Of a stretch of DNA of 64,000 nt, positions 1-37,223 are shown piece after piece (position 1 is the stretch's first letter; every line of letters begins with the position of its first letter). Under the pieces are notes generated by a model. It was given only the letters and a program-made list of their open reading frames with translations. It was not told the origin of the DNA and searched no databases. A program made the translations under genes and the position numbers. Location: the IMG/VR virus record IMGVR_UViG_3300032116_012976. The stretch is one strand, 5' to 3'. Source of the stretch: a virus. Taxonomy: Duplodnaviria > Heunggongvirae > Uroviricota > Caudoviricetes.

Positions 1-612
1 TATGTCAAGCAGTTGTGCGACGGGCGCATAGAACACTTCATGCAGTACGTGAGTTTAGACGGCTGGGGCTCACAAGCAGAATACATGCGTCACGGTATGG
101 ACTTCAATTTACTATGGGACAGGGTAAATCAATTTCTAACAGAAGTACCCAGCTACAACAGTCTAACGTTTATTGTGACCATGAACAATCTATCAGTAAC
201 CAGCTTGGAAAACCTGTTTGCTGGCATTCTAGGTCTGCGTAAAACCTATAGCAAAACCTATCAACGTGTGTGGTTTGATACACCTGTACTACGCGAACCG
301 GCTTGGCAGAGTTTGCAAATACTGCCAGAAAGCTATGCTGAACGACTGGAATATCTCTGGGCGTGGATGATACGTTGGACAGAAACTGCCGAAGATCCAT
401 TCCACGGATTCAAAGACTACGAACTTGCTAGACTGGACAGAGACATTGCATGGATGCGAGCAGGCCAAGGACAAGATCATTCCGCAGCAAAGGCAGACTT
501 TTATAGATTCTTTCGAGAACACGATCGCCGCAGAGGCACTGACTTTTTAAAGACCTTTCCAGAAATGAAAAGCTGGTGGGCAGAATGTGCATATCATGCT
601 AGGAACACATAA
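1..612 (+). CDS. radical SAM paralog, C-terminal fragment; the 5' end lies before the window
   Basis: The reading frame is open from nt 1. The motif GSQAEYMRHGMDFNLLWDRV matches the conserved G..EYIR.G.DW block in the C-terminal halves of the radical SAM paralogs at 1686, 3027, 4283, 6490 and 40403. Confidence 0.45.
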   Translation, partial: YVKQLCDGRIEHFMQYVSLDGWGSQAEYMRHGMDFNLLWDRVNQFLTEVPSYNSLTFIVTMNNLSVTSLENLFAGILGLRKTYSKTYQRVWFDTPVLREPAWQSLQILPESYAERLEYLWAWMIRWTETAEDPFHGFKDYELARLDRDIAWMRAGQGQDHSAAKADFYRFFREHDRRRGTDFLKTFPEMKSWWAECAYHARNT

Positions 613-1699
613 GCTCATAGTAGACGAATGGGCCGAAGTCTGGGACTTGCTCAAGCCATATGCTGACAGCAGTTTTTGGCAGTTGCCCAGCTTGGATCCT
701 GCCAATGTGTATGTTGTTGGCCGTGTGATATTGAAAGACAACTGGCAGACAATAACTGACTGGGCCACTCAGCACCCTGGACGCATTGTGTTCTCCAACC
801 CTGCAGAAGGATCAGAAACCATACTGCTACAGCTCAAGCGACTGCGCATTGCTGACTTGGTCCAAGACGGGCGCATAGGACTGTTGACGTCTGGGGATTT
901 AGAACCAGGGTGGAGCTATTGTAAAACAGACTGTTACTTTTCAAACATAGTGGAATACACAGAAAACAAATCGGCGCAACTACAAGCTGACATGGATTCA
1001 AAAGCGCATCGCCCATATGATTTTCTTTTTTTAAATGGCCGCCTGCGCCCACATCGCAAAGCACTGATAGACGGCCTGCGTGAAAATCAGCTGTTGGATC
1101 ATGCATTATGGACCAACCTGGGCAGTTCTGTTGAAATGGCATTTACTTCTGCACTGCAAACCAATCAGCTTGAGCCTATTAGACTGTTGCCCCCAGAATA
1201 TGAAATTGAACGTGCTGTACCCAACATGGAATCAGCGTATGCACACAGTTTTTGCAAGCATCATTTGTTTGGCAATACCTGGGGCGATGCCATTGTTAAT
1301 CCTGCTTGCTACACAAGCACATGGTTCTCAGTGGTAACAGAAACCATATTTGATTACCCGCACACATTTAGAACAGAAAAGATATGGAAGCCCATATTAA
1401 TGGCACACCCATTTGTGGCAGCTGCCAACAGGGGTTACTTGCGAGACTTGCGCAACGCAGGATTCCGCACGTTCCACAACTACATCGACGAATCCTACGA
1501 CCAAATTGATTGTCCAAGCAAGCGAATAGATAGTATAATAGCAACAATTGGCGAGATCTGTCAGAACGGTGCTGCTGAATTCTGGACAGCCGCCCAGGAT
1601 ATCTGTAAATATAATCAACAGCACCTAGTGGAGCACAATCAATTGGAACGTGCCCAACTCCCCATCAATTTAGAAAAGTATTTAGATGAACGATCTTGA
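587..1699 (+). CDS. GT10-like (TEK-motif) glycosyltransferase paralog
   Basis: The C-terminal block ...VTETIFDYPHTFRTEKIWKPILMAHPFVAAANRG...GFRTFHNYIDESYDQ is shared with ORFs 5478, 13420, 14594, 55318 and 58621. The TEK(F/I)(W/F)K...P(V/I)V pattern resembles the alpha1,3-fucosyltransferase (GT10) motif. The call rests on recalled motifs. Confidence 0.4.
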   Translation: MHIMLGTHKLIVDEWAEVWDLLKPYADSSFWQLPSLDPANVYVVGRVILKDNWQTITDWATQHPGRIVFSNPAEGSETILLQLKRLRIADLVQDGRIGLLTSGDLEPGWSYCKTDCYFSNIVEYTENKSAQLQADMDSKAHRPYDFLFLNGRLRPHRKALIDGLRENQLLDHALWTNLGSSVEMAFTSALQTNQLEPIRLLPPEYEIERAVPNMESAYAHSFCKHHLFGNTWGDAIVNPACYTSTWFSVVTETIFDYPHTFRTEKIWKPILMAHPFVAAANRGYLRDLRNAGFRTFHNYIDESYDQIDCPSKRIDSIIATIGEICQNGAAEFWTAAQDICKYNQQHLVEHNQLERAQLPINLEKYLDERS

Positions 1700-3017
1700 G
1701 TTCCGTCAGCAAGTATTAGACCCTCTCTCAGCCAGCTTTTGTGCGGCAAAATGGTATAACGCAACCATTTGGTTAGGAAGTGGACAGACCACAAGTTGTC
1801 ATCACCCGCCAGCTCATTTGATCGACAAAGATAAAGTCAGCATCAACCCTAGGCTACTGCACAATACTGATCAAAAGAAGGCAGATCGCCAACAAATGAT
1901 CAACGGGGAGCGTCCCCCTGGCTGTGAGTACTGTTGGAAAATAGAAGACATGGGTCGCAATGCCATTTCAGACCGTGTGTATAAGAGTAAGATATATCCC
2001 ATAGAGGCATTACATGAAGCTAGAAATACACCATACACTGAAGACGTCAACCTCCGTACACTTGAGATCGCTTTTGATCGCACTTGTCAGTTTGCTTGTA
2101 GCTATTGTAATCCAGCTTTCAGTTCAACATGGGTTAAAGACATCCGACGCAACGGAGCTTACCAGAACTTGGTCAGTGATGGTCGCAACCATTTTACCCA
2201 TGATCATGCTAACGCACAACTTTGGGATTATGGAGAACACAATCCTTACATTGATGCATTTTTTAAGTGGTGGGAGTCGGATCTGCATCGCACACTGCAA
2301 GAGCTCCGTATCACAGGAGGAGAGCCCCTCATGTCTGGTCACACATGGAAGCTCATTGACTGGTTTCGAACAAATTCAGGCAAGAGTTCAACACGCCTGG
2401 CTATCAACAGTAACCTAGGCACAGACGTAGACATTGACCGCTTGCTAGATGCAACGCAAAACATGGCAATTGACATATACACTTCAAACGAAGCTGTGGG
2501 TGTGCAAGCAGAGTACATACGCGACGGGTTGGTCTGGGCGGACTGGATGAACAATGTCAACCGCTTGTTAAGTTCCAAGCAGTTCCGTAGCATACATGTG
2601 ATGTGTACCATCAATGCCCTGTGCCTAGACAGCTTGGATCAATTGCTAGAGTGCATAGTGAAATGGAAGCTGGAGTATGGGCGTGATGCTATATCATTCA
2701 CACTAAACATCTTGCGTTTTCCCAGCTTTCAAAGTCCGTTGATACTGCCTGCGGAGTTGAAAACACACTACAAAACAGTGTTGGAAACTTGGCTCACAAA
2801 TCACAGCCACAGTGAATACCTGCACGAACACGAAATCAATCATTTACAAAGATTGATTGATTACCTGGATGTGGTGAAAACACCGCATTCAGACACATTT
2901 GAAATGCCCAAGCTATTGAATGATTTCAAACAATTCCACACACAGTATGACCAGCGTCGCAACAAAGACTTTGGCACAGCGTTCCCAAATCTGCAGGCCT
3001 GGTATAATTCACTATAA
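1686..3017 (+). CDS. radical SAM enzyme, paralog 2
   Basis: Radical SAM signature CQFACSYC (CxxxCxxC). An N-terminal Cys cluster is present (C..C...CxxC: PPGCEYCW). The start overlaps the stop of the upstream gene by 4 bp, which indicates translational coupling. Confidence 0.7.
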   Translation: MNDLEFRQQVLDPLSASFCAAKWYNATIWLGSGQTTSCHHPPAHLIDKDKVSINPRLLHNTDQKKADRQQMINGERPPGCEYCWKIEDMGRNAISDRVYKSKIYPIEALHEARNTPYTEDVNLRTLEIAFDRTCQFACSYCNPAFSSTWVKDIRRNGAYQNLVSDGRNHFTHDHANAQLWDYGEHNPYIDAFFKWWESDLHRTLQELRITGGEPLMSGHTWKLIDWFRTNSGKSSTRLAINSNLGTDVDIDRLLDATQNMAIDIYTSNEAVGVQAEYIRDGLVWADWMNNVNRLLSSKQFRSIHVMCTINALCLDSLDQLLECIVKWKLEYGRDAISFTLNILRFPSFQSPLILPAELKTHYKTVLETWLTNHSHSEYLHEHEINHLQRLIDYLDVVKTPHSDTFEMPKLLNDFKQFHTQYDQRRNKDFGTAFPNLQAWYNSL

Positions 3018-3026
3018 TTCACTATA

Positions 3027-4286
3027 ATGTCATATAATTACAACTCTACAGATCTAGTAAGACCCACAGAATTAACTGAGCGTGAGGAATTCTTACTAAA
3101 AGATTCAAAGACATTTTGCATTTATCCCTGGATCCATTTGCACGCCTATCCCACAGGCGAGGCATATCCCTGCTGTCATGCTGAAATGAAGCCAGGCATA
3201 GTAGGCAACTGTAGAACAAATACCTTAGAAGAAATATGGCAGGATGCACCCATGCAGAAGCTACGTGCAGACATGCTGAGCGAAACGCCACACGCTGCCT
3301 GCACACGTTGTTATGAGCAGGAAGAATCAGGATTCTTTTCAGGCCGTAAGAGTGCCAACAAACATCACGGACATCACATAAAGAAGCTGGATCAAAATCC
3401 TTTTGAAATGACCTACTGGGACATTCGTTTCTCAAACTTGTGCAATCTAAAATGCCGTAGCTGCGGATACATATTCAGCTCACAATGGTATCAGGATCAA
3501 GCCAAACTTGCTGGCGGCGACTGGAAAGCCCGCAACACAGTGCTAAACTATGCAGGGCGTACTGAAACTGACATGTGGGAACAATTAAAGCCTCATTTGG
3601 ACTATGTGGAACAGATCTACTTTGCTGGCGGTGAACCCTTGCTTATGGCGGAACACTACAATATTCTAGACGAGCTGGTGCGAAGAAAACGCTTTGACGT
3701 TAGACTCATATACAACACCAACTTCACACACACGGATCTCAAGGGTCGTTCAGTATTTGAATACTGGCGCCAGTTCGATTCAGTTGCTGTGGGTGCCAGC
3801 CTGGATGCGTCGGGCGCACGTGGGGAATACATTAGAAAAGGCACAGACTGGGCCGTAGTAGAACAGAACAGACGTGATATGTTGCGTGTGTGCCCTGAAG
3901 TGGATTTTTACATTTCACCTACCTTGAGCATAATGAATGCCTGGCACCTGCCTGATTTCCACCGTGACTGGGTGGAAAAAGGCCTGATCCGCGCACAGGA
4001 TTTAAATATAAATATCCTACAAGATCCTGCGCACTATAGAATAGACATTGCCACAGCCGAATACAAACACTCACTCACAGCACTGTATCAAAATCATATC
4101 CATTGGCTTAAAGGTCAGGACCCGCTAAATCGTGCCACACAAGGCTTTGAATCAGCCATTACCTTTATGATGGCCACAGACAACACACACTTGATAGATA
4201 CATTCTGGCGCAAAACAAATGAACTAGATTCAATAAGAAATGAATCAATATTGGATATAATTCCAGAATTGGCGGCACTAAAATGA
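3027..4286 (+). CDS. radical SAM enzyme, paralog 3
   Basis: Motif FSNLCNLKCRSCG (CxxxCxxC). N-terminal Cys cluster FCIYPW...YPCCHA...CTRCY. A GGEPL-like motif FAGGEPLLM. The C-terminal block GARGEYIRKGTDW. Confidence 0.7.
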   Translation: MSYNYNSTDLVRPTELTEREEFLLKDSKTFCIYPWIHLHAYPTGEAYPCCHAEMKPGIVGNCRTNTLEEIWQDAPMQKLRADMLSETPHAACTRCYEQEESGFFSGRKSANKHHGHHIKKLDQNPFEMTYWDIRFSNLCNLKCRSCGYIFSSQWYQDQAKLAGGDWKARNTVLNYAGRTETDMWEQLKPHLDYVEQIYFAGGEPLLMAEHYNILDELVRRKRFDVRLIYNTNFTHTDLKGRSVFEYWRQFDSVAVGASLDASGARGEYIRKGTDWAVVEQNRRDMLRVCPEVDFYISPTLSIMNAWHLPDFHRDWVEKGLIRAQDLNINILQDPAHYRIDIATAEYKHSLTALYQNHIHWLKGQDPLNRATQGFESAITFMMATDNTHLIDTFWRKTNELDSIRNESILDIIPELAALK

Positions 4287-5500
4287 ATATTCCACACGAT
4301 CAATTTTGCGTATTGCCCTGGGTGAGTTTAGAAGCCTCTCCCATTGGCACTGTACGCCCATGTTGTCTGGCAGATGATGAACTGACGGATGACTCTGGCA
4401 CAAAGTTCTCGCTATTGAATGCTAACTTTGCTGACATACAAAACTCACGTGCAATGACACGCCTGCGTGAACAGTTTCTTGCAGGCGAAAAGCCACAGAC
4501 CTGCCGCAAGTGCTGGATGGAAGAACGTGCTGGCCGCACATCAAAACGCATGCACACCTTGGACAGAATGAAACACATGGGCATATCAGGAGAATGGACC
4601 ACTGACGCCAAGCCGCTGATGTTCCTGGATTTGAAGCTGGGCAACATCTGCAATTTAAAATGTCGTATATGCGGATCATGGTCATCAAGCCAATTTGCCA
4701 CAGAAGAATTAAATGACATGCATCCAGATGACGATAAGAAAAAGACATTTCCCTATCAGATGCTGCGAGCAGGTGCGTGGCCCAGGGAAAATCAATCATT
4801 TTGGACAGAAATTGATGCCTGTTTAAATGACATACGCTACATTGAATTTACAGGTGGCGAGCCATTCATGATTGATCAGCACTTTGACATGTTGCAGGGC
4901 ATTGTGGATCGCGGAATTGCACATCAAGTGGAAATACACTACAACACAAATGGCACACAATGGCCTGCTCGCGGCCCGGACATCTGGCGCCATTTTAAAA
5001 CAGTAGAAGTGGCGTTCTCAATAGATGATGTGGGTGAACGCTTTGAATATCAACGCACCAATGCAGACTGGGCATTGGTGCTGGACACAATCACAAGTTT
5101 TCAATATCTTAGAGATCAACTGCCCAACCTGCGTTTACAATGCTGTAGTACCGTGAATGTGTTTAATGTGCGGTACATTGATCAACTAGCACACTGGATA
5201 GCACTGCAACGCTTTGACTTTGTGTACTGGAACATGATGCATGATGCCTGGTACTTTTCAATTGCCACACTGCCTGACACAGCCAAAGCTGCTGTCACAG
5301 AACACCTACGTTCAGCAGATGTGCCCGCACAATATCGTGAGGAGTTTGATAGAATCACAGACTTTATGAATGGGGGTGCGTCAACGGACGGCTTTATGTT
5401 GCGAATGAAAGTACGTGATTTAGATCGCAAAAGAAAACAAAATTTACGTGATGTAGCGCCAGAATTTGCTGAAATAATTGGGTATGACTATGACCAGTAA
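4283..5500 (+). CDS. radical SAM enzyme, paralog 4
   Basis: Motif GNICNLKCRICG. N-terminal Cys cluster CVLPW...RPCCL...CRKCW. Motif FTGGEPFM. Overlaps the neighbouring genes at both ends. Confidence 0.7.
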   Translation: MNIPHDQFCVLPWVSLEASPIGTVRPCCLADDELTDDSGTKFSLLNANFADIQNSRAMTRLREQFLAGEKPQTCRKCWMEERAGRTSKRMHTLDRMKHMGISGEWTTDAKPLMFLDLKLGNICNLKCRICGSWSSSQFATEELNDMHPDDDKKKTFPYQMLRAGAWPRENQSFWTEIDACLNDIRYIEFTGGEPFMIDQHFDMLQGIVDRGIAHQVEIHYNTNGTQWPARGPDIWRHFKTVEVAFSIDDVGERFEYQRTNADWALVLDTITSFQYLRDQLPNLRLQCCSTVNVFNVRYIDQLAHWIALQRFDFVYWNMMHDAWYFSIATLPDTAKAAVTEHLRSADVPAQYREEFDRITDFMNGGASTDGFMLRMKVRDLDRKRKQNLRDVAPEFAEIIGYDYDQ

Positions 5501-6497
5501 TCTGGTATTGATGCACGACACCAGACTGGTTCCTGCCAATTTGTCAAGGCATTTTCCTGTGGACTATGAGTTTTTTGATCCTGGCAAAACATATCCCAGC
5601 AACACAGTTTTTGTTTATGATCATTATCTCAGTGAAATTGCAGTCAAACAGCATCTTGACAGTCATCTGCAAGCTGGCTACAGAGTAATATACGACAACA
5701 AAAATGAACATTGGTTTACCACTGACCAATGGTGGATTGTTGAGCTGCTACAAAAATATCCACAACAACACCTTTTGTTTAGTTTGGGATCACAGCCTGG
5801 CGCATTGCCTGGACTCAGAGTGCAGGCTGTGCCTGCTTGGATATGGCTGCGTTGCCGAGACTATTGGGAAAAATTGAACTATCACAATATTGCATATACT
5901 CCAACTGCACGGTATAAAACATTGTGTATGATCAACTACACACGACCCTGGCGAGACCTGGTGTGGCAAGCATTGAATCCCATGGAGGCAGATGTGATGC
6001 GTAGTTATTTGTCCCAGGGGATCAGCATGCCCGACGATGTTACAGGTGATGGACACTTGTGGCAGGTAAATCCACGTTGGTTTCATATTTCTGCAATGAG
6101 CTTGGTGTGCGAAAGTTCAATTGGTGCTGTTTCTGGAGAAATTTCAGTCACTGCACCGTCAGGTGTGTTTGTGAGCGAAAAAAGTCTAAAGCCCATGGCC
6201 ATGCAACATCCATTTATTGTGGTAGCAACCCCGGGTACCCTAGCAGAGATACAGAGTTTTGGATTTGAAACATTCCCAGAGTTATGGGACGAAAGCTACG
6301 ATTCAATTGTGGACTTTGGTCAGCGATTAAACGTCATTATGCAACAAGTGCAACAGTTTGATACAGCACAATTAAACCAGCTGGTAGTGCAACAAAAACT
6401 CCAACACAATCAGCACAGGATTTTTGATCCTGCGGTAACACAGCAATTGCTACAGCAACAGGTGTTGGATCCCATATTAGAATTTTTAAATGAATAA
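5478..6497 (+). CDS. GT10-like (TEK-motif) glycosyltransferase paralog
   Basis: Block FVSEKSLKPMAMQHPFIVVATPG...FGFETFPELWDESYD. The start may be the ATG at 5484 or 5490. Confidence 0.4.
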   Translation: MGMTMTSNLVLMHDTRLVPANLSRHFPVDYEFFDPGKTYPSNTVFVYDHYLSEIAVKQHLDSHLQAGYRVIYDNKNEHWFTTDQWWIVELLQKYPQQHLLFSLGSQPGALPGLRVQAVPAWIWLRCRDYWEKLNYHNIAYTPTARYKTLCMINYTRPWRDLVWQALNPMEADVMRSYLSQGISMPDDVTGDGHLWQVNPRWFHISAMSLVCESSIGAVSGEISVTAPSGVFVSEKSLKPMAMQHPFIVVATPGTLAEIQSFGFETFPELWDESYDSIVDFGQRLNVIMQQVQQFDTAQLNQLVVQQKLQHNQHRIFDPAVTQQLLQQQVLDPILEFLNE

Positions 6498-7779
6498 ACC
6501 TGATACCATGTGCCTGGCACCTTGGGTGCATACCTATCTAAGCCCGCAAACTGAACGGCGCATGTGCTGTGCGTCACGCGAGCCTGCACAGAATTTTCGG
6601 CAGTACATAGACACTGAGTCAGGTACTGGTCAGTATATTCCTGTCACACTTGAAGAACATTGGAATTCAAATCACATGCGATCAGTGCGTCGCAGAATGA
6701 TGGCCGGAGAAACTTTACCTGAATGCGAAGTATGCAATGACCGACTCCTTAACACTAGCGTTTACCGCACCTACTTCGATCATTTATTTCAGCACAAACT
6801 GCCAGAAGTATACGCTAACACACAGCCCGATGGCACTACGACTATGGAACCTGTTTCATGGGATTATAGGTTCTCAAACTTATGTAACTTCAAATGCAGA
6901 ACCTGCGGAGATATGCTTTCAAGTGCCTGGGAGAGTGAACAAAAACAGAACAACATGGTCAACTGGGCTGATCCTAAAAACAATTGGATGCGAGACAGTA
7001 TACGTGACAGCATCTCCCAATTTCAGGATAGTCAAATTGAAGCCGAATTTGCTGCCGCCGTTGAACAACATCGTGTAGAAGAAATCTACTGGGTGGGCGG
7101 AGAGCCGCTAATGTACGAACAGCATTGGCGCCACATGAAAAGAATTGTTGAACTAGGAGATGGACCACGTGTTTATGCTAGATATAATACTAATCTCAGC
7201 CGTGTGCGTTACGGCGGTGTGGATCTATTTGATGATATCCTGGCGCACATTCGCGATTGGCAAATATGTGCTTCCCTGGATGGAACTGAGCAGATCGGGG
7301 AATATATTCGTACAGGATTGGATTATGCACAGTTCTGTCGTAATTTTGAACACGGACTCAAATACGCTACCAACCCTAGACAGATGCGTCTTGACTTTAC
7401 CCTCACACTGCCCGGCATGTTCGAGACTGGCGCAATGGAAAAGTTATCACAGACGTATGGGGTACAATTGTTAGCCAAAGTGATATTCAGCTTTAGTCCA
7501 GACATTGTTATGAGTCCACTTGCGCTGCCCAGACACTTGTTGGATCCATGGGTTGACGAACTAGCAGGCCGCTCCGCAGGTGACATGCGTGATGTACTGC
7601 TACAATTAAAGAACCGTCCATGCTTTGAGGAACAATGGCCGGATACATATCGCGCAGGACTTGCAAAAGGCAAAGCTCGTGTGTTACAATTAGAAAGCAT
7701 ACGCACACAGAAGATTACTATGGCAGAAATACTTGCTCAAAGACCAGCAGTGCTAGAATGGTGGAATAAAATTGCTTGA
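6490..7779 (+). CDS. radical SAM enzyme, paralog 5
   Basis: Motif FSNLCNFKCRTCG. N-terminal Cys cluster CLAPW...RMCCAS...CEVCN. Motif WVGGEPLM. Block GTEQIGEYIRTGLDY. Confidence 0.7.
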   Translation: MNKPDTMCLAPWVHTYLSPQTERRMCCASREPAQNFRQYIDTESGTGQYIPVTLEEHWNSNHMRSVRRRMMAGETLPECEVCNDRLLNTSVYRTYFDHLFQHKLPEVYANTQPDGTTTMEPVSWDYRFSNLCNFKCRTCGDMLSSAWESEQKQNNMVNWADPKNNWMRDSIRDSISQFQDSQIEAEFAAAVEQHRVEEIYWVGGEPLMYEQHWRHMKRIVELGDGPRVYARYNTNLSRVRYGGVDLFDDILAHIRDWQICASLDGTEQIGEYIRTGLDYAQFCRNFEHGLKYATNPRQMRLDFTLTLPGMFETGAMEKLSQTYGVQLLAKVIFSFSPDIVMSPLALPRHLLDPWVDELAGRSAGDMRDVLLQLKNRPCFEEQWPDTYRAGLAKGKARVLQLESIRTQKITMAEILAQRPAVLEWWNKIA

Positions 7780-8833
7780 TCACATTGAAATAGACCTACG
7801 CGGACAAAACAGCCTACTAACTGTGCATATAGATGTGGCGGACAACACACTAAGTCGCAAATGGCTAACCGCGCTAAATGACATCATTAGAACTGATCTT
7901 CATTTGGAAAAGAATTACTGTTGGATGGGATGGACTGAAAGTGAACGAAATGCACAATACCTTTGTGAGCAAATTAATGCTAGTATTGATCACATCAATC
8001 GAAGTGGTATTGGCTATTGTATTGATTGTGATGCTTATACTGTAGAGAATACCATTGAGCCAGGAATCATTGGCACCAATCTAATCATCGGTGGCGTGGT
8101 GCATGAAAAAATGAACAATCTACACAGGTATTTTGAAGACCTACAAGGGTGGTCAGGTGGCATTTCAAATTATTATACTCGTGCAGATCCTGCTACACGC
8201 TGGCACATACGTCAACTAAATCTCCTGTGTCATGAATATGAAAGTCTTGTATTGAGCATGCGCAAGGCTGTGCATGCCCCTGAATGGCGCAGACCCTCAC
8301 AGTTGATGTGTTGGCTTAATGCACCGCGTTTTGCACTAGAACCCGCGGACTATGAATTGTTTGGCGTAGAAACCATCAACAGAACTCTAGGCGGTGTTTA
8401 TTTGGGTGTAAATAAAGCAGTTGGCAAACATCACTGGGAGGTGTTCAATGATGAAGGTAGGGATTCGCGTGTTGGCGAGCTTGTTACTACAGGACTGCGT
8501 GCTCAAACTGAAGCCGCTGGCGACTTTGATATCGAATGGGCCCGTGACCCAGGAGCATATCACTGGCAAATCAAAAAGTTACAAGAATTCCGCGCCTGGC
8601 TATTGGACAATGGGTTTGATCCAGAGGACAAAAGTCTCACCATTGGTCACCCAAAGGTGGCACAAGTTGACGTGATGCGAACATTTGGAACAACGGATTA
8701 TGAAAAGATTTGGGCGCAGTTGGCTCAACATCTTGATGTGTTGAGCATACGTACCGGGTGGGGCGAAGCTACATACAACTATCGCTGGAGCGATCCAGAC
8801 TATCATGAACAGCAAATAAGGAGATTGAAATGA
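7772..8833 (+). CDS. hypothetical protein
   Basis: A 353-aa ORF coupled to the upstream radical SAM gene. No recognisable motif. Confidence 0.4.
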   Translation: MLDHIEIDLRGQNSLLTVHIDVADNTLSRKWLTALNDIIRTDLHLEKNYCWMGWTESERNAQYLCEQINASIDHINRSGIGYCIDCDAYTVENTIEPGIIGTNLIIGGVVHEKMNNLHRYFEDLQGWSGGISNYYTRADPATRWHIRQLNLLCHEYESLVLSMRKAVHAPEWRRPSQLMCWLNAPRFALEPADYELFGVETINRTLGGVYLGVNKAVGKHHWEVFNDEGRDSRVGELVTTGLRAQTEAAGDFDIEWARDPGAYHWQIKKLQEFRAWLLDNGFDPEDKSLTIGHPKVAQVDVMRTFGTTDYEKIWAQLAQHLDVLSIRTGWGEATYNYRWSDPDYHEQQIRRLK

Positions 8834-8927
8834 ATTGGATTAGACAAATTTGGGATAGAATTACACTAGAGTATCGTTATCGTAAAAAACTAAAAGAGCT
8901 ACGCAAAAGAGATCCTTTTATCTACAA

Positions 8928-9575
8928 ATGAAAAATCAGTTACTCACAATAGGTGATAGCTTTACACATGGTGACGAATTGTCAGATGTGTATCAAGCCT
9001 GGCCCTATCGTCTGTCAGACAAACTAGGATACGAAGTCCACAATCTTGGACAGTCAGGGTGCAGTAACGCTAGTATTTTGCGTAGAACATTAGAAGAACT
9101 TGCGACCAATCATTATGATTTAGTTATTATAGGGTGGACTTATCCGGGTAGAATTGAATGGAAAGATGACATTGGCATAGCGTATGATTTATGGCCAGGT
9201 GTGCCCAACGATACTAAATTTTTTAAAGATCATCCTTGGAGAGTTGATTTTTTAAACTTTATAAGTCAACATCACAATTCTGCTTATCTATACCAACAGT
9301 ATCTGATACAAACAATTTTGTTGCAATCGTTTTGCCAAGTCAACAGCATTGATTATAGAATGTTAGATGTACAATGGCACAATTACTACAGAAAAGTTGG
9401 ATCAGAAATGCATGATAAGTTAGAAGCAAAAATAGATACAACAAAATTTATAGGTTGGCAAAAGTTTGGTATGAGAGAACTAGTGGCTGATTTACCAAAA
9501 GGTCCTCAAAATCATCCGCTAGAACAAGGACATGAGAGAATAGCAAATGAAATCGCAAAACATATTGGGAATTAG
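8928..9575 (+). CDS. SGNH/GDSL-family hydrolase
   Basis: N-terminal GDSL block LLTIGDSFTHGDEL, with a downstream G and a GHER motif. Confidence 0.5.
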   Translation: MKNQLLTIGDSFTHGDELSDVYQAWPYRLSDKLGYEVHNLGQSGCSNASILRRTLEELATNHYDLVIIGWTYPGRIEWKDDIGIAYDLWPGVPNDTKFFKDHPWRVDFLNFISQHHNSAYLYQQYLIQTILLQSFCQVNSIDYRMLDVQWHNYYRKVGSEMHDKLEAKIDTTKFIGWQKFGMRELVADLPKGPQNHPLEQGHERIANEIAKHIGN

Positions 9576-11037
9576 TGCAGGCTTTCATGACGCTGCCTTG
9601 ACCTTGTTAGACCAGCACGGCAAGATTGTGTTTGCCGGCCATTCAGAACGTTACAGCAAGCAAAAAAATGATGCTGATATTTCATCAGCCATGCTTGACG
9701 AAATTGACATGAGTCAGGTAGGTACCATTGCGTACTACGAACGTCCGTGGATGAAACAACTGCGTCAATGGTATGCAGGACAGGGTATTGAGTGGAACAA
9801 AGTAACCACAAGACAAATACTAGAGCAACAGCTTGGCGCTGACCAAGTCAATGGCAAACGCATTAAAAACTACAATCATCATTTGTGTCATGCTGCTGCT
9901 GGTTTTCAAACAAGCCCTTATCCCATAGCCACAGTGGTTGTGATAGATGCTGTGGGCGAATGGGACACAGTGTCAATCTGGGGAGCAATGTATGATAAAA
10001 ATCTTAAAGCAACGTATACTCGACTTTGGTCGCAGAGTTATCCACATTCAATTGGATTATTCTACAGTGCTATTACTAAGCGCATTGGCCTACACCCACT
10101 AGACGAAGAATACATCACCATGGGCATGGCCGGATGGGGAACACCTCGATGGACCGAAGTCATGCGTGATGTACTCGTGGACAATCCAGAACAACTGCGG
10201 TTTAGATCAAACTTACACACAGGACTTGATTCAAGTTTTTTAGATTGTGCAACCAATGAAGATATTGCTGCTTCGGCACAACAACTCACAGAGTATCTAA
10301 TACACCAAGTTATGACCAAGGCCAAAAACTTTGGGTGGAGTGACAACTTGGTTTACATGGGCGGAGTGGCGCTAAACTGTTTGGCCAATAGGAGGTTAGG
10401 TGAATACTTTGATAACATATGGATTATGCCTTGTCCTGGTGATGCTGGCAGTAGCCTGGGCGCCGCCGCTCTTGCACACGGCGGTTGTGTTCAGTGGACT
10501 AGTGCTAGTCTTGGCCATAATATACCTGGTGATTACCCTGTTTACAATGCCATGGCTGCTCTTCTCACTGATCGTATTGTGGGTGTGGCATCGGGCCGAG
10601 CAGAATTCGGACCCAGAGCCCTAGGCAATAGATCATTGCTAGCAGACCCCCGTGGCGCTGACATAAAAGACCAAGTGAATTCGATCAAACGCAGACAAAA
10701 ATTTAGACCTTTTGCCCCAGTTATTCTGGAGGAGTTGGCTGACGATTACTTTGATATGCCTCGTTGCTGGAGTGACAGTAGGTATATGCAAATTGTCGCT
10801 CGTTGCCGGCATCCTGACTTATTTCCCGCTGTTATTCATGTTGACGGCACTAGTCGTGTACAGACTGTGCCCCGCGACGGATCAGGCATAAGAAAGCTGT
10901 TGGAAGCATGGTACGCCGAGACAGGTTGCCCTATGTTGCTTAATACAAGTTTAAACATACGTGGGGAGCCAATGGTAAACGACAGAGCAGACGCAGACCG
11001 ATTTGAAACACTGTATGGTGTAAAGGTATGTTCATGA
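9547..11037 (+). CDS. carbamoyltransferase (NodU/CmcH family)
   Basis: The N-terminus ILGISAGFHDAALTLLDQHGKIVFAGHSERYSKQKND is typical of NodU/CmcH/HypF-like carbamoyltransferases. Length 496 aa. Confidence 0.7.
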   Translation: MKSQNILGISAGFHDAALTLLDQHGKIVFAGHSERYSKQKNDADISSAMLDEIDMSQVGTIAYYERPWMKQLRQWYAGQGIEWNKVTTRQILEQQLGADQVNGKRIKNYNHHLCHAAAGFQTSPYPIATVVVIDAVGEWDTVSIWGAMYDKNLKATYTRLWSQSYPHSIGLFYSAITKRIGLHPLDEEYITMGMAGWGTPRWTEVMRDVLVDNPEQLRFRSNLHTGLDSSFLDCATNEDIAASAQQLTEYLIHQVMTKAKNFGWSDNLVYMGGVALNCLANRRLGEYFDNIWIMPCPGDAGSSLGAAALAHGGCVQWTSASLGHNIPGDYPVYNAMAALLTDRIVGVASGRAEFGPRALGNRSLLADPRGADIKDQVNSIKRRQKFRPFAPVILEELADDYFDMPRCWSDSRYMQIVARCRHPDLFPAVIHVDGTSRVQTVPRDGSGIRKLLEAWYAETGCPMLLNTSLNIRGEPMVNDRADADRFETLYGVKVCS

Positions 11038-11720
11038 TTATAATTATGGGCGATAGTTGGGGCGTGGGAGAATGGGGATCGGATAAAGATCGCAGTTGTT
11101 GTTTAACGGGTCCGGGAATAGGTCAATTGTTTTCTTTGCATGGCAAAGTAATAAATTTTAGTCAGGGCGGTGCTAATAATTTTGAACAACAACAGGAGTT
11201 TGAACGGTTGTTGGCAAAATTCAAACCAGATGACAATGATCAATTTTATTGGATAGTTACAGATCCTTTAAGAAATGTTGTACCTAGCACGTTACTAGAA
11301 ACTGCTTCAAGTATTGAATCTGCCGCACAAGAACTGTTAAATTTGTTTTTTAAAAATATTAATTTCATTGCAACTAGTCGCAATATAACCATTAGGTTAA
11401 TTGGAGGGCTCTGTGATCTTGAACCTATATCTTACAGCCATTTAAAAGTGGTTGTTCCAAGTTGGTGCAAAATGCTTAATGCAACTCATACATCATCAAT
11501 TTTTGTAGATGACACAATTAAAGAGCTTGCACCATATATTGCAGCGCATAGGCCTGATTTAAAACATGAATGGACAGAAATAGCCAAAACTGCATTGGAC
11601 AAAAGAAAAAGTGTTAAGTACTTAGAATCTTGTGGGCTAATAGTGGCAGACCATCCTTCAAGACAAGCGCACAGATTACTAAGAGATTATTTGTCACCGG
11701 GCAACGAAAATGTTTTTTAA
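11028..11720 (+). CDS. GDSL-like hydrolase (second copy, divergent)
   Basis: N-terminal block IIIMGDSWGVGEWG. It is flanked by a duplicated gene-end junction (see findings). Confidence 0.4.
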   Translation: MFMIIIMGDSWGVGEWGSDKDRSCCLTGPGIGQLFSLHGKVINFSQGGANNFEQQQEFERLLAKFKPDDNDQFYWIVTDPLRNVVPSTLLETASSIESAAQELLNLFFKNINFIATSRNITIRLIGGLCDLEPISYSHLKVVVPSWCKMLNATHTSSIFVDDTIKELAPYIAAHRPDLKHEWTEIAKTALDKRKSVKYLESCGLIVADHPSRQAHRLLRDYLSPGNENVF

Positions 11721-11777: not shown

Positions 11778-11864
11778 CTTGCACATACGTGGTGAGCCCA
11801 TGGTCAACGATAGAGCAGATGCAGATAGATTTGAACGTGAGTATGGTGTCAAGGTCTGTTCATG
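11778..11864 (+). repeat. 87-nt degenerate duplication (~79% identity) of the carbamoyltransferase 3' end (10951-11037)
   Basis: An ungapped alignment of the two 87-mers. Both end in gttcATGa, which overlaps the start of the next gene. Confidence 0.6.
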
Positions 11865-12407
11865 AATGTGCATGCAATTCATTTGCCCAATCAGGCTCGA
11901 TGTTTTTTAATTGACAGCTTTTTCCCACAAAGTCATCTAGCCAGCATACATGAAATATGTGAGGCTTTCAGCAAAGAGTCTGTGGCCTGGCAGCATCCTG
12001 AGTGGACCACGTATCGTTACATATATCAAAACTGCTCACCTGAATGGCAGTCAGTTGTGGACTATCTAAAAGTTCCCAACCCAGAACTCACTCAAGCACT
12101 GGGCTATGCTGTGACATGTGATGAAGTGTTGTTATGGGCAGAGTTTCAAGGCATTGGAATATTGCAACCGCATGTTGAAATACCCGGCGGTAAAAATCTC
12201 AGTCAGTTGTATATTACCAAACAGCCAGTGCCCAATAACGGCACTACCATCTATACCGATCAAAAAGAAATATTATGCTTGTTGCCGTATCGTGACAACT
12301 TTGGATGGTTCTTTGATGACAGTGGTCGAGTCATGCATGGGCGTGACAATGACGTACCACCAGACATCATACGTTTTACCATGATGATGCACTGGTCTAA
12401 AGTGTAA
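11862..12407 (+). CDS. hypothetical protein
   Basis: A 181-aa ORF. Its ATG overlaps the duplicated TCATGA junction sequence. Confidence 0.4.
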   Translation: MNVHAIHLPNQARCFLIDSFFPQSHLASIHEICEAFSKESVAWQHPEWTTYRYIYQNCSPEWQSVVDYLKVPNPELTQALGYAVTCDEVLLWAEFQGIGILQPHVEIPGGKNLSQLYITKQPVPNNGTTIYTDQKEILCLLPYRDNFGWFFDDSGRVMHGRDNDVPPDIIRFTMMMHWSKV

Positions 12408-13448
12408 TTACAGATAAGTTTCTAAACCGCCACGACGGCGGATATCCTGTGTGCAACAAGATATACCGCCGTCCCAGAAGTAGCTGTGACGCAACTCACA
12501 TATAATGGGTTCAATCCCATGCTTCCTACAGTAATCAAAAACTTCTTTGTTGTACGCACTAAAGATCACGTGCGATTCATCTAACACAAGACAGTTGACA
12601 TCAAACACAGTTTCGGCCACAAAGCCAGTCCATTTGGTCAGATAAGTGTTCACAAAGTCTGTGAACTCAGGTGTGGGTGTTTGGCCTTGCACATACCATG
12701 CGCCAGGTGATTGTTCGTACTTGAACTTGCCCACTTCCATAGCGGCCCAGATTGAACTGTCCCAGATCTTACATACGTCCCAGCCAGGAAAGTCTTTGGC
12801 TAGATCCAAGTTAACATCGTGCTTGCTGGACAGTAACACACCGGGTTTGAGAATAGCAAACACAGCATCACCGTGTCCATCTGTAACAGCTTCGTGTATG
12901 CGATACTCTGGACCTAGGCAATTGTCCACAATCCAACGAGTTTGATCAGGACGCAAAAAGTCTGAGTTGTCAAAGAACACATCACGCCCCACACGCACAA
13001 TACAACTTGCACTTGCACCATTTAGTATGCAATCTGGATCCCAGGCGCTTTTGTGTGGGTTAATGACTGCATCTCCGTAGCCTCGGCAAACGTTATCCAG
13101 TTCAGGCATGGCCAACACACGCAACAATTTGCCGCCCAAGGTGATTTGCCAGTCGCGTGGTGTGAGTGGCGGCAGCGGAGCACCTCCTCCTTCAGTTTGG
13201 AACCATACAAATTGATCTTTTGCAGGTAGATCTGGACGACGAACTTGAGCTCCAAACTGCTCAATGGTCTTGGACAAGTTAGCAAGATCTTCTTCAGTTT
13301 CATGGAGAATCTGTTGCAGTTGATTGCGCACTTGTGGATTGTCTATGAAATCAAAGTAGTCAGGCGAGTAAGCACGACCCACAATTACTTCTTCAAGTGG
13401 TTGCCAGCTGGTGTAGGAGTTAACGATATTGCTCATGTATTTTCTCAA
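12408..13448 (-). CDS. amidinotransferase-superfamily-like protein (tentative)
   Basis: The C-terminal motif HSYFWDGGISCCTQD resembles the catalytic Cys region (GG.x.C.T) of arginine deiminase / amidinotransferase / StrB1-type enzymes. Length 346 aa. Confidence 0.35.
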   Translation of the reverse strand: MRKYMSNIVNSYTSWQPLEEVIVGRAYSPDYFDFIDNPQVRNQLQQILHETEEDLANLSKTIEQFGAQVRRPDLPAKDQFVWFQTEGGGAPLPPLTPRDWQITLGGKLLRVLAMPELDNVCRGYGDAVINPHKSAWDPDCILNGASASCIVRVGRDVFFDNSDFLRPDQTRWIVDNCLGPEYRIHEAVTDGHGDAVFAILKPGVLLSSKHDVNLDLAKDFPGWDVCKIWDSSIWAAMEVGKFKYEQSPGAWYVQGQTPTPEFTDFVNTYLTKWTGFVAETVFDVNCLVLDESHVIFSAYNKEVFDYCRKHGIEPIICELRHSYFWDGGISCCTQDIRRRGGLETYL

Positions 13449-14610
13449 TCAAGCTATTTAAACGCTTGCTCTTGTTGGCAACAAATAATTGCTGGTTGTG
13501 TTCTATGTCTGCTCTGGCAGCTTCGAACAACTGCGGTAACCTGGGTTGAGCGGCTGCTATGCTGTCACGCAAGCTCTCCCAACGCTGTGTGTGGTTTGCA
13601 ATTTTATCGTAACTGTTATCCAGTATGCCATCAAACACACGATAGCCCAGATCACGCAACACTTGCAAACTACCAGCACCACCGCCCACAAAAAACAACT
13701 GCCCGTGTTTGATAGGTTTGAATGTTTTTTCTGTAACAAATGCACCATTTGACTGATCCACATCAAATTGACTTTCCAACACTATGTTACAGTATGCGTT
13801 TGCAAAATATTTTGGTTCCATTACAGAATGATTGTTGCGATCGCTATCACTTAGTTCATCGCTGATGTAAGGTGCCTGATCCAGGAACCGTTTGCGATCA
13901 TAACGCAGCTGACTGATCATATCTACTTCTATTGGGCAGTCGGTATCTTCACCGTAAGGTTCTTCACAATAACTCCAATAACTGTTGCTCAGTATACCAG
14001 AGCGATGCAGGTCTGCCATGGCAGTGGCCCGCCACCATTTGTGCAGTCTGCTCAAACAAGTAAAATCTCGTTCTCGTGGCAAGTTGTGAATTTCTAAAGG
14101 CGCACTGTTGATGTTGCGCTGATAATACCACAGTTCAAAGTCGTGAAATGTAACAAAGCCGGGCAACTGGTCTGCGGATGTATTACTGCTGACAAATATA
14201 TAACAGTCTGGTGGCAACAGGTGTTGTTCGGCTAATGCGTCCAGTCTGTTTTTGATTCGTCTAGGACTGTCACCTTCGTGGTACATGAACAACACACGTA
14301 ACTCACTGCGGTGCAGTTTTTTTCTTACAGCAACTGTCATTAATTCAAAGTAGTCAATGTCAAAGTCAAAGAATCCCAAGCAAACAGGATAGTATGTGTT
14401 GGCTGGCAAGCTGTGGTCGATGTTGTGAACTGTTAAATCAATACCATGTTGACCACAGTATTCTTGTATTCGCACAGGAGTAGTGTATGGCCAGTGCTCG
14501 CCAAACTGTCTCCAGCCGGGAGTGTAAGGTCTAGCTTCGTGCCGTGCCAGGGCAGGATATATTTTACCTTTGATGGTTTGATCAGCAACAAGATTAAGTT
14601 TGTAATTCAT
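13420..14610 (-). CDS. GT10-like (TEK-motif) glycosyltransferase paralog
   Basis: Block VLESQFDVDQSNGAFVTEKTFKPIKHGQLFFVGG...LGYRVFDGILDNSYD. Confidence 0.4.
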   Translation of the reverse strand: MNYKLNLVADQTIKGKIYPALARHEARPYTPGWRQFGEHWPYTTPVRIQEYCGQHGIDLTVHNIDHSLPANTYYPVCLGFFDFDIDYFELMTVAVRKKLHRSELRVLFMYHEGDSPRRIKNRLDALAEQHLLPPDCYIFVSSNTSADQLPGFVTFHDFELWYYQRNINSAPLEIHNLPRERDFTCLSRLHKWWRATAMADLHRSGILSNSYWSYCEEPYGEDTDCPIEVDMISQLRYDRKRFLDQAPYISDELSDSDRNNHSVMEPKYFANAYCNIVLESQFDVDQSNGAFVTEKTFKPIKHGQLFFVGGGAGSLQVLRDLGYRVFDGILDNSYDKIANHTQRWESLRDSIAAAQPRLPQLFEAARADIEHNQQLFVANKSKRLNSLIEKIHEQYR

Positions 14611-31079: not shown

Positions 31080-31093
31080 TCAGTTCCGTTGGC

Positions 31094-32698: not shown

Positions 32699-32817
32699 AA
32701 TTGTAATAAAATTACCGGTTACGACTCCGGTGCTGAACTATGGTGTCAGCCGTTCTGATCTGTACCCTATCACTTCACCATACTTTCACAAGCAGAGGGC
32801 TAGGCAGAAAGCCGCCT

Positions 32818-33438: not shown

Positions 33439-33449
33439 GTGCCTCCTTT

Positions 33450-33683: not shown

Positions 33684-33709
33684 TTTGCACTCCTTTCTGT
33701 TAATGTGTA

Positions 33710-35928: not shown

Positions 35929-35938
35929 TTCCGTCTCC

Positions 35939-36710: not shown

Positions 36711-36723
36711 ATTCCGTTACTTA

Positions 36724-37200: not shown

Positions 37201-37223
37201 CTTTCAAAAATATTTATTGATAG

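Follow-up and report, generated by a model that had tools for sequence, protein, structure and literature searches.

The window analysed here, a 64,000-nucleotide stretch of a freshwater phage genome of ~350 kb, carries six very divergent radical SAM (rSAM) copies, five of which lie within a 21-kb sugar-building locus (1-21.4 kb). By their sequences, all six ORFs are radical SAM proteins of the N-terminal-twitch family NF033640 (NCBIfam N_Twi_rSAM, twitch domain-containing rSAM; cut-off 170 bits), and a profile built from the five full copies recovered exactly these ORFs, A to F, and none besides in the window. Copy A (1..612, + strand) is a C-terminal fragment truncated at the window edge, matching NF033640 with 98.8 bits across model positions 230-397; its full-length orthologs in 78 related loci measure 456-656 aa as stop-to-stop ORF lengths. 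The full copies, all on the + strand, are copy B (1686..3017, 443 aa, 297 bits), an ortholog of Ralstonia phage RsoM2USA gp349 (33% identity, 225 bits); copy C (3027..4286, 419 aa, 387 bits), which is nearest to the family mainstream, with 35-41% identity to most bacterial representatives; copy D (4283..5500, 405 aa, 329 bits); copy E (6490..7779, 429 aa, 281 bits); and copy F (40403..41527, 374 aa, 199 bits), whose Pfam Radical_SAM score of 40.4 bits exceeds the gathering score. Because they are only 18-28% identical to one another, the copies are ancient paralogs rather than recent duplicates. The preliminary description had recognized the five full ORFs and the 5′-truncated ORF 1-612 on the + strand as rSAM paralogs, and all of them indeed match NF033640. 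The family cannot, however, be called previously undescribed, as was tentatively proposed there, because the five full copies score 199-387 bits against the cut-off of 170; they also match PHROG 14086. The curated NF033640 model, which carries no function, covers no fewer than 6,334 clusters (50% identity), and its members come from Bacteroidota, Bdellovibrionota, Elusimicrobia, Paenibacillus and numerous phages, the cultured ones including Vibrio K566/K567, RsoM2USA and KVP40-type phages.

Copies A-E belong to a single co-directional gene string. Four copies had been described as lying back-to-back with 1-4 bp overlaps, but only 1686, 3027 and 4283 are directly adjacent, separated by a 9-nt spacer and, between copies C and D, joined by a 4-nt ATGA overlap; the remaining junctions are overlaps of 8-29 nt. 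Nor do all six copies share one operon, since copy F sits 32 kb from the string, alone in a tRNA array as the sole + strand gene among − strand tRNA genes (tRNA-Lys at 40267-40341 and tRNA-Arg at 41568-41645), a setting repeated in other contigs. The glycosyltransferase-like genes reported to be interleaved with the rSAM genes were borne out: these ORFs are predicted to fold as GT-B glycosyltransferases, in a model of medium confidence, and the paralogs are related by BLAST and profile searches. Paralog 1 (596..1699, +; the listed ORF begins at GTG 587, while orthologs start at ATG 596) is followed by paralog 2 (5478..6497, +; family profile 283 bits), an insertion between copies D and E that shares 32% identity with paralog 1 across the C-terminal 96 aa and varies in presence across loci, being missing from many related ones. 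Paralog 3 (13420..14610, −; 336 bits) matches paralogs 1 and 2 by BLAST at E 2e-12 and 1e-10, and paralog 4 (14594..15790, −; 305 bits) matches the paralogs at E 1e-9 to 2e-12.

The other genes of the locus include several assigned to carbohydrate-related enzyme families. Conserved protein X (7772..8833, +; 353 aa), which yielded no Pfam, NCBIfam, PHROG or PDB-sequence match, was found in 75 of the searched loci and always follows copy E. It is succeeded by a conserved 33-aa micro-ORF, MNWIRQIWDRITLEYRYRKKLKELRKRDPFIYK (8830..8931, +), with ATGA overlaps at both ends, then by an SGNH/GDSL-type esterase or acyltransferase (8928..9575, +; Pfam DUF6071 E 9e-11, Lipase_GDSL_2 E 4e-7) and a NodU/CmcH-type carbamoyltransferase (9547..11037, +; Carbam_trans_N E 3e-38, Carbam_trans_C E 1e-48, PHROG 1601 E 2e-90). 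Two ORFs without a family match come next, one with an N-terminal GDSW motif seen in its translation only (11028..11720, +) and one of 181 aa (11862..12407, +). An amidinotransferase homolog (12408..13448, −) matched AGAT 2jdx (E 3e-16), StrB1 1bwd (E 6e-13), HsvA and SxtG by phmmer against the PDB, and its C-terminal GGISCCTQDIRRRG aligns with the catalytic-Cys motif. Beyond the last two GT-B-like genes lies a 1199-aa protein (15789..19388, +) made of about ten tandem 65-aa repeats (W.PDP.DPPYIY.FGNQ..., spaced 65-68 aa) and a C-terminal domain; it has no Pfam or PDB match, but its residues 971-1193 match RsoM2USA gp348 and gp350, the neighbours on either side of the copy-B ortholog gp349. 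A DegT/DnrJ/EryC1-family sugar aminotransferase (19360..20475, −; Pfam E 5e-53), with PseC and 4-amino-4,6-dideoxyhexose transaminases as nearest NCBIfam models, all under cut-off, and an extended-SDR NDP-sugar 4,6-dehydratase/epimerase (20387..21382, −; Epimerase E 3e-46, GDP_Man_Dehyd E 7e-35), nearest to the dTDP-glucose 4,6-dehydratase model and likewise under cut-off, complete the locus, which thyX adjoins.

The cysteine motifs define two predicted cluster sites. In ORF 3027 numbering, the N-terminal C31, C49, C92 and C95, the CxxxCxxC cysteines C139, C143 and C146, GGE 201-203, and E267/R270 of the 'EYIR' block are invariant in the five full copies, which agrees with the conservation noted earlier for the last three elements. 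Both Cys motifs are present in every one of the 429 homologs from 82 clade loci (81 related loci plus the window), a conservation therefore far beyond chance. The N-terminal spacing had been given as C-x8-9-CC; the first pair is in fact C-x17-21-C with G-x4-C, the SPASM/twitch signature, and the CC doublet is missing from copy 1686. Pfam SPASM matches sit at the rSAM N-termini (residues 31-96 of copy C, E 7e-12; residues 9-78 of copy D), and the auxiliary ligands C169, C187, C232 and C235 of BtrN, the butirosin 2-deoxy-scyllo-inosamine dehydrogenase (PDB 4M7T), align one-to-one with C31, C49, C92 and C95. These matches substantiate the suggested auxiliary Fe-S site and assign the N-terminal Cys4 site, at the sequence level, to a twitch domain. 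Since twitch domains known previously are, to our knowledge, C-terminal, the domain order appears permuted in these rSAMs. The [4Fe-4S] site predicted from CxxxCxxC should cleave SAM to the 5′-deoxyadenosyl radical, and a second putative [4Fe-4S] cluster, read partly from motifs, would be held by four Cys ligands in the twitch domain ahead of the barrel. The AF2 model of copy C reached pLDDT 94 and pTM 0.91, and the proteins carry an extra C-terminal helical region of ~80 aa. A domain profile search found no B12-binding domain in the rSAM copies, which makes the C-methylation suggested earlier unlikely as a cobalamin-type reaction.

Comparison with known rSAM systems placed the phage proteins closest to NF033640 itself, which the five copies match full-length above cut-off with like domain order and invariant residues. 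The rSAM HMM searches proposed in advance thus found matches, and the models for QueE, NrdG, MoaA and viperin stayed far below their cut-offs, so that the copies are neither QueE nor anaerobic RNR activases. BtrN resembles them in having one auxiliary [4Fe-4S] cluster with four Cys that are spaced almost identically (C-x17-C-x42-44-CxxC; E 3.6e-5 for the alignment of the twitch regions) and in a carbohydrate or cyclitol setting with a DegT-type transaminase; however, its twitch is C-terminal, only the generic rSAM core is otherwise common, and its 250 aa lack the additional helical region. A fully Cys-ligated auxiliary cluster accompanies two-electron oxidations in BtrN, PqqE and SuiB (PMC9012708). 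The top Foldseek match was the anaerobic sulfatase maturase anSMEcpe/AtsB (PDB 4K36; E 3e-5, 20-22% identity over ~255 columns, but TM only 0.38-0.44), likewise an oxidising rSAM with auxiliary clusters; its SPASM domain is C-terminal and holds two such clusters, and its substrate is a peptide, in contrast to the N-terminal twitch here, and sulfatase maturase membership was rejected (NCBIfam sulfatase_rSAM, 17 bits vs cut-off 349). Viperin gave the best PDB sequence match of the rSAM core (E 2.5e-5); viperin_w_prok was sub-threshold for all five full copies and second-best model for B, D, E and F, and moaA was listed, also sub-threshold, for B, D and F. With 17-35 bits against cut-offs of 180-284, both identities were rejected; viperin lacks an auxiliary cluster, and the MoaA twitch is C-terminal with three Cys rather than N-terminal with four.

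The array recurs widely. At least 228 related contigs were found, with genomes of ~340-352 kb, and the backbone R-G-R-R-R-(insert)-R-X-carbamoyltransferase, with five rSAM copies, recurs in 82 related loci examined, which hold 4-8 rSAM copies each amid mosaic gene content; having five to eight divergent copies in one locus of a genome is unusual compared with the single copy in most bacterial NF033640 loci examined. Among 34 bacterial members, the commonest neighbour families were GT2 (8), PhyH (8), other rSAM (6), SDR (4), ABC transporter (4) and carbamoyltransferase (3), and one Bacteroidetes locus combines a member with an ABC-2 exporter permease, a carbamoyltransferase, GDSL, GT4 and an NDP-sugar epimerase. 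The bacterial homologs lie in polysaccharide-type loci and share partner families with the phage locus. No gene of the phage GT-B-like family was detected next to NF033640 members of bacteria or Vibrio phages. Some bacterial members adjoin ACP, ketosynthase and SDR genes instead of sugar genes, and others carry fused TPR repeats, a hint that their partners may be proteins or peptides. No description of a multi-copy rSAM array was found in the literature searched.

The locus product is most likely a heavily decorated glycan, and we favour, with a rough probability of 0.55, a phage glycan pathway in which the rSAM enzymes dehydrogenate or epimerise sugars by radical chemistry. Such a role in sugar tailoring is consistent with the surrounding genes, in which five rSAM copies would be co-transcribed with GT-B glycosyltransferases in a 21-kb carbohydrate locus, and with the bacterial neighbourhoods. 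In the proposed pathway, 4-amino-4,6-dideoxy sugar nucleotides would come from the transaminase together with the 4,6-dehydratase-like enzyme, and the GT-B paralogs would build an oligosaccharide attached to an acceptor, for which a virion protein or host envelope glycoconjugate is the most likely candidate. Every rSAM paralog may then take H from its own particular sugar carbon, the electron passing to the auxiliary cluster to yield a keto-sugar, as in the BtrN reaction, or, alternatively, H being given back on the opposite face to yield an epimer, and neighbouring enzymes would aminate, amidinate, carbamoylate or acylate the resulting positions. We infer the reaction type solely from the BtrN-like cofactor chemistry. 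Given the mosaic gene content of related phages, the structure of the glycan would diversify from one lineage to the next. Precedent for radical dehydrogenation, dehydration or epimerisation of sugars beside GTs and transaminases comes from the rSAM enzymes that tailor sugars in aminoglycoside pathways (AprD4, DesII, HygY and NeoN). AprD4 and DesII are among the weak fold matches (E 8e-3 to 2e-2; no specific homology), and in bacterial antibiotic clusters each such enzyme is present as a single copy. Phage and giant-virus glycan loci, e.g. that of mycobacteriophage virion glycosylation, likewise encode GTs and sugar-nucleotide enzymes. The earlier observation is partly confirmed and its interpretation partly supported.

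It is unlikely that the locus instead makes a free aminoglycoside- or aminocyclitol-like small molecule, acting on the host or competing phages, by a phage-borne natural-product route from twitch rSAM dehydrogenase through PLP transaminase to amidino- and carbamoyl-transfer, on the model of the butirosin, streptomycin and tobramycin pathways. The tailoring classes of such pathways are present (BtrN-type twitch cluster, DegT/StsC-family transaminase, StrB1/AGAT-family amidinotransferase and NodU/TobZ-type carbamoyltransferase), and a cyanophage genome paper called a similar trio 'antibiotic synthesis genes', their role being unclear (PMC12801897). However, neither a cyclitol synthase (2-deoxy-scyllo-inosose or inositol-phosphate synthase) nor an exporter was seen among the scanned locus ORFs; the four to six GT-B paralogs, the 1199-aa repeat protein and the mosaic content are more suggestive of a locus for a surface glycan, and the exporter of the bacterial example is of the ABC-2 polysaccharide type.

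Of the sugar-or-peptide modification suggested earlier, the sugar part fits the neighbours; a peptide substrate is possible but the weaker reading. SPASM/twitch enzymes act on PqqA or MftA, each with a crucial Tyr close to its C-terminus, and here the rSAMs might mature the 33-aa micro-ORF product or a virion protein that GTs and transferases then decorate. The micro-ORF is translationally coupled on both sides and present in 76 of 86 related loci, and its C-terminal 18 aa are nearly invariant while synonymous codons vary, the C-terminal RYRKKLKELRKRDPFIYK being under purifying selection at the protein level; structurally, the rSAM model comes closest to the peptide-modifying anSME, CteB and SkfB, and the bacterial TPR-repeat fusions point the same way. 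Yet those structural matches are weak (TM ≤0.44) and reflect the common rSAM core, no PqqD-like RiPP-recognition domain was detected in any copy, and the micro-ORF follows protein X rather than an rSAM and is absent beside bacterial members and from K566 and RsoM2USA, which do have the rSAMs. An 18-aa basic helix would also be an odd core for 5-8 distinct rSAMs, and the nucleotide-sugar genes would go unaccounted for, so that this reading is less likely still. Least likely is DNA hypermodification, in which GT-B enzymes would glycosylate DNA bases and rSAMs and transferases elaborate the sugars to evade host restriction: rSAM enzymes participate in known thymidine hypermodification pathways and thyX adjoins the locus, but ThyX implies that dTMP is made in the ordinary way, the scanned parts of the window showed no hydroxymethylase, 5-hmdU kinase or DpdA-type gene, and the bacterial homologs lie in polysaccharide loci.

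Partner genes of the proposed glycan pathway also occur in other viruses. Cyanophage S-SCSM2R has an amidinotransferase homolog with 30% identity, and its authors list a DegT-type transaminase and an rSAM as well (PMC12801897), the latter not detected as an NF033640 member by tblastn; in a marine virus contig, an amidinotransferase and an NF033640 member lie ~3 kb apart.

The first 11.7 kb of the window (1-11.7 kb, + strand) comprised one tight run of co-directional ORFs, in which radical SAM (rSAM) paralogs, designated copies A to F, were interleaved with glycosyltransferase-like (GT-like) genes. In order, the string carried rSAM copy A (1-612, truncated by the window edge), GT-like 1 (596-1699), copy B (1686-3017), copy C (3027-4286), copy D (4283-5500), GT-like 2 (5478-6497), copy E (6490-7779), protein X (7772-8833), a 33-aa micro-ORF (8830-8931), an SGNH esterase (8928-9575), a carbamoyltransferase (9547-11037) and an ORF without assigned product (11028-11720). 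Copies B and C were separated by a 9-nt spacer, ATGA overlaps joined C to D, protein X to the micro-ORF and the micro-ORF to the SGNH gene, and the remaining junctions overlapped by 8-29 nt. The B/C spacer sits in a perfect 10-bp tandem duplication (3005-3029; TAATTCACTA TAATTCACTA TAATG), the first unit of which covers the stop codon of copy B, while the ATG of copy C follows immediately after the second. A consensus scan was uninformative, with no excess of promoter-like or terminator-like sites within the string and counts close to the shuffled expectation. Given the tight junctions and the lack of excess sites, the string is plausibly an operon with translational coupling.

Copy F (40403-41527, +) lies 32 kb away from the other copies and is the sole + strand gene between tRNA-Lys and tRNA-Arg, within a - strand array of 30 tRNA genes and a tmRNA gene. 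This array (36479-49077, -) covers all 20 amino acids and has a few protein genes interspersed; the tmRNA (47603-48121, -; 519 nt) carries the tag ANDEKFLMAA and an asterisk flag from ARAGORN. In or beside the tRNA region are also a truncated ketoacyl-synthase-like gene (44015-44986, +) and a fatty-acid desaturase gene (49536-50300, -), lipid-metabolism genes that are unusual for a phage.

To assign the six paralogs, whole-protein HMM scores were compared with curated cut-offs. The five full-length copies scored 297 (B), 387 (C), 329 (D), 281 (E) and 199 (F) bits against the NCBIfam family NF033640 (N_Twi_rSAM), all above its cut-off of 170, and the truncated copy A scored 98.8 bits across the C-terminal 168 model positions, which established the family membership. 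All five full copies also matched PHROG 14086, and pairwise identity among the copies was 18-28%. Pfam SPASM matched the N-terminus of copies C, D and E (residues 31-96, 9-78 and 8-83, respectively), and Pfam PF04055 (Radical_SAM) matched weakly in mid-protein in all five, its gathering score of 29.5 being passed only by copy F (40.4; the other full copies, 20.9-27.9). Invariant in the five full copies, in copy C numbering, were C31, C49, C92, C95, C139, C143, C146, G201-G202-E203, N232, S258, E267, R270 and R404. Two cluster-binding motifs were thereby established: the canonical CxxxCxxC (C139/C143/C146), accompanied by the GGE SAM-binding motif and a partial TIM-barrel core whose copy C model matched rSAM structures, and the four invariant cysteines preceding it, as in the one-cluster twitch (half-SPASM) placed N-terminal to the rSAM core that defines NF033640. 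A two-cluster SPASM enzyme (7-8 Cys including CX2CX5CX3C) was rejected, since only four conserved cysteines lie upstream of the core and the aligned copies have none after the CxxC; because no further conserved cysteine exists, the domain is a twitch with one cluster. Cobalamin-dependent class B rSAM methyltransferases were likewise rejected, as the twitch fills the N-terminus and no B12-binding Pfam family matched at E 0.01 or better.

The preliminary description had asked whether the copies fall into a well-characterised family such as QueE or NrdG, and their scores placed them outside these: NrdG2 gave 15-18 bits (cut-off 131), and QueE was far below its cut-off, with a QueE-like PHROG reaching 28.7 bits in one copy only. 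Scores were similarly low for moaA (19-29 bits vs 284), viperin_w_prok (17-35 vs 180) and the anaerobic sulfatase maturase model sulfatase_rSAM (17 vs 349). Its suggestion of a previously undescribed family did not hold, as the proteins match the curated NF033640, which has phage members. With a profile built from the five full copies and counts taken as cluster representatives at 50% identity, the family comprised 6,334 clusters at an E-value threshold of 1e-30 and 11,867 at one of 1e-10. The observation behind it was real if imprecisely described, and the interpretation was right in kind: the rSAM paralogs are divergent, possess an auxiliary cluster and occur in a context of sugar modification.

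Next, PDB sequences were searched with a profile of copy C and 39 family representatives. The N-terminal 75 positions of this profile aligned with the C-terminal twitch of BtrN (E 3.6e-5, a likeness confined to the twitch region); the BtrN auxiliary ligands C169, C187, C232 and C235 fell exactly on the four conserved cysteines, and the G-x4-C signature was kept. The twitch is C-terminal in BtrN, whereas it is N-terminal here, which places the copies outside the BtrN-type twitch dehydrogenases. SPASM/twitch domains are described in reviews as C-terminal extensions (PMC9012708), and judged from the alignments the domain order in the NF033640 family is reversed relative to those enzymes. The AlphaFold2 model of copy C was confident (pLDDT 94, pTM 0.91) and had no close solved relative, the best match being anSMEcpe (E 3e-5, TM 0.38-0.44), followed by CteB, GDGT-MAS, SkfB, viperin and NifB. 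In the viral structure library BFVD, the predicted whole fold was shared by about 20 uncultured Caudovirales proteins and by 'MoaA/NifB/PqqE family' proteins of Vibrio phages KVP40 and phi-pp2.

The genes surrounding the rSAM copies were predominantly of sugar type. By structural modelling, the interleaved ORFs have the two Rossmann-like domains of the GT-B fold. Three paralogs of GT-like 1 lie within the locus (5478-6497, +; 13420-14610, -; 14594-15790, -), and two distant GT-B-like ones (55318-56433 and 58621-59580) are placed on either side of an asparagine-synthase-like amidotransferase (56435-57976); the latter three genes form a second small glycan-type module (55318-59580, +). The carbamoyltransferase of the locus is NodU-type, and its SGNH protein is SGNH/DUF6071, a further gene like it lying at 62893-63621 (-). 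The locus also holds an amidinotransferase homolog with the catalytic-Cys motif kept (AGAT, E 3e-16; StrB1, E 6e-13), a DegT-family transaminase nearest to 4-amino-4,6-dideoxyhexose transaminases and an SDR nearest to dTDP-glucose 4,6-dehydratase, and this set of sugar-nucleotide and transferase genes is regarded as established. A 1199-aa protein (15789-19388, +) carries about ten tandem 65-aa repeats (DYSWVPDPGDPPYIYVFGNQW..AE.MPTVEY.VPGATERKYMD) and matched neither Pfam nor PDB sequences; protein X had no PDB-sequence match either. The C-terminal domain of the repeat protein is homologous to gp348 and gp350 of Ralstonia phage RsoM2USA, the genes flanking gp349, which is the single N_Twi_rSAM there and the ortholog of copy B (33% identity).

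The conservation of the array was then evaluated across related phages. Metagenomes yielded thousands of relatives of copy C at 85-94% identity, the longest of their contigs reaching 352 kb, and copy C also matched at least 228 contigs in IMG/VR, of which several measure 340-352 kb. Megablast of window 1-9600 against 50,697 phage records gave no match, and tblastn of copy C retrieved only four phage records, all distant. The clade set comprised 82 loci extending 10 kb to either side of copy C, namely the window and 81 fetched loci; each carried 4-8 family members, and both Cys motifs were kept in 429/429 family ORFs. At 45% identity the clade rSAMs formed 12 types, with core types A-E each present in 78-82 loci and six rare accessory types; F lay elsewhere in the genome. 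The clade-wide backbone was fixed and well established, running R-G-R-R-R-(insert)-R-X-carbamoyltransferase (R, rSAM; G, GT-like; X, protein X), followed on the opposite strand by the amidinotransferase and GT-GT, and inserted extra GT-like, SGNH and rSAM genes produced more than 55 distinct architectures. By its gene content, such a conserved core with mosaic accessories resembles surface-polysaccharide loci. What is new is the system: in the glycan locus of a widespread jumbo-phage clade, five to eight permuted-twitch rSAM paralogs form an array that is conserved yet mosaic. The advance is one of annotation and holds no new principle. Two clade contigs (L083 and L084) were binned in a Haliscomenobacter MAG, and the window encodes a Gram-negative porin (46657-47547, -; Pfam Porin_4, E 3e-25), the only host hints noted.

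Outside the clade, bacterial loci were gathered with an alignment of copy-C-like representatives. Matches came mainly from Bacteroidota, Bdellovibrionota and Elusimicrobia, and also from isolates of Paenibacillus, Eubacterium, Reichenbachiella and Agaribacillus, with a single family copy in most loci. One Elusimicrobia MAG, MJ-2014_bin-0981, supplied 15 fetched contigs (L093, L096, L097, L101-L103, L106-L110, L112, L113, L118 and L137), several with long fused ORFs of about 1.6-3.4 kb that are arrayed in tandem and bear N_Twi_rSAM domains, an expansion exceeding that of the phage. Family representatives included tandem double and triple rSAM fusions and TPR fusions, and no informative enzyme fusion was found among them. 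Across 34 bacterial loci, two genes per side plus the non-family genes between copies were scanned (136 proteins after the longest were dropped), and the commonest Pfam families were PhyH dioxygenase (8), GT2 (8), other rSAM (6), SDR (4), ABC transporter (4), carbamoyltransferase (3), TPR (3) and GT1 (2). A Bacteroidetes locus (L156, syntenic with L115) carried, in this sequence, an ABC-2 permease, a family member, a carbamoyltransferase, a small ORF, GDSL, UbiA-type and GT4 genes and an NDP-sugar epimerase; by these annotations it is a locus of the polysaccharide-export type, and its partner families are those seen in the phage. The Paenibacillus member neighbours ACP, ketosynthase and SDR genes, and that of Eubacterium neighbours GT2, PIG-L deacetylase, other rSAM and ACP genes; because these contexts differ from the polysaccharide type, the family is probably multifunctional. 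Among cultured phages, Vibrio jumbo phages K566 and K567 carry four copies, with hypothetical genes lying between them. A search beside bacterial members and in K566 and RsoM2USA for the phage GT-B-like family, protein X and the micro-ORF located none of them outside phage-like contigs, so they could not serve as conserved partners. On a marine virus contig (MH319727), about 3 kb separate an amidinotransferase from a family member. The literature search returned no paper on NF033640, its function or such rSAM arrays, the one related item being a cyanophage paper in which a DegT-type transaminase, an amidinotransferase and an rSAM of S-SCSM2R were called 'antibiotic synthesis genes' of unclear purpose (PMC12801897).

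Taken by analogy, these gene contents suggest, at a probability of roughly 0.55, that the locus carries out rSAM oxidation or epimerisation of sugars, followed by decoration and GT-B chain building. In butirosin, streptomycin and tobramycin biosynthesis, a twitch-rSAM dehydrogenase is followed by a DegT-type transaminase and an amidino- or carbamoyl-transferase. Each phage rSAM would cleave SAM reductively and then remove a hydrogen from a carbon of the sugar; the auxiliary cluster, fully ligated by Cys, would take up the electron to give a keto-sugar, or an epimer would arise if hydrogen were given back. Such an electron-acceptor role has been proposed for the auxiliary clusters of BtrN, PqqE and SuiB (PMC9012708). 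The product would be decorated by transamination and by amidino-, carbamoyl- and acyl-transfer, and the GT-B paralogs would build the chain. A bolder version, that the locus is a combinatorial assembly line in which each permuted-twitch rSAM performs a different oxidation or epimerisation on an amidino-/carbamoyl-decorated oligosaccharide, an aminoglycoside-like product or the 33-aa peptide, is considered unlikely.

Two other products were weighed. The enzyme classes fit a free aminoglycoside-like metabolite; however, the locus ORFs that were scanned include neither a cyclitol synthase nor an exporter, and the layout, mosaic and rich in GTs, resembles a glycan locus, making such a metabolite quite improbable. 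The micro-ORF product (MNWIRQIWDRITLEYRYRKKLKELRKRDPFIYK, 33 aa) may act as a peptide substrate, as a regulatory or arrest peptide, or as a small subunit. It occurs in 76/86 related loci, and across these 76 the last 18 residues hardly change although their codons differ synonymously, whereas the N-terminal half is variable. That this peptide is what the rSAM enzymes modify, as its near-invariant C-terminus and ATGA coupling on both sides might suggest, is very doubtful, as the micro-ORF is missing wherever the family occurs outside the clade and the Pfam scan detected no RRE or PqqD-like recognition domain in any copy.

NF033640 is a very large family without a known reaction or solved structure (best TM about 0.4). 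If the assembly line is real, it would for the first time assign a function to this rSAM family, which exceeds 6,000 sequence clusters, and would be the first multi-rSAM pathway of the natural-product type to be encoded by a phage, testable in cultured Vibrio and Ralstonia jumbo phages. The clade of roughly 350-kb phages, with five core and accessory paralogs beside defined sugar enzymes, offers a tractable entry, and the distant cultured relatives K566/K567 and RsoM2USA are open to genetics. If sugar oxidation and chain building is the correct reading, the glycan might serve for virion coating, host-surface remodelling or competitor exclusion. The array also raises the question of why a phage of oxic fresh water carries five to eight oxygen-sensitive enzymes. 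Elsewhere in the window, a rubrerythrin gene (35939-36376) is followed directly by a rubredoxin-like 42-aa ORF (two CxxC pairs, inside ORF 35800-36030; the pair spanning 35800-36376, -), and the two might provide electron supply or oxygen protection for phage Fe-S enzymes. Several Fe(II)/2-oxoglutarate-type oxygenase genes were also found at 28844-34608 (-), including two of the TauD family (31787-32698 and 33739-34608, -) and an Asp/Asn beta-hydroxylase-like gene (28844-29575, -) adjoined by ORFs of the same size at 29572-30303 and 30300-31079.
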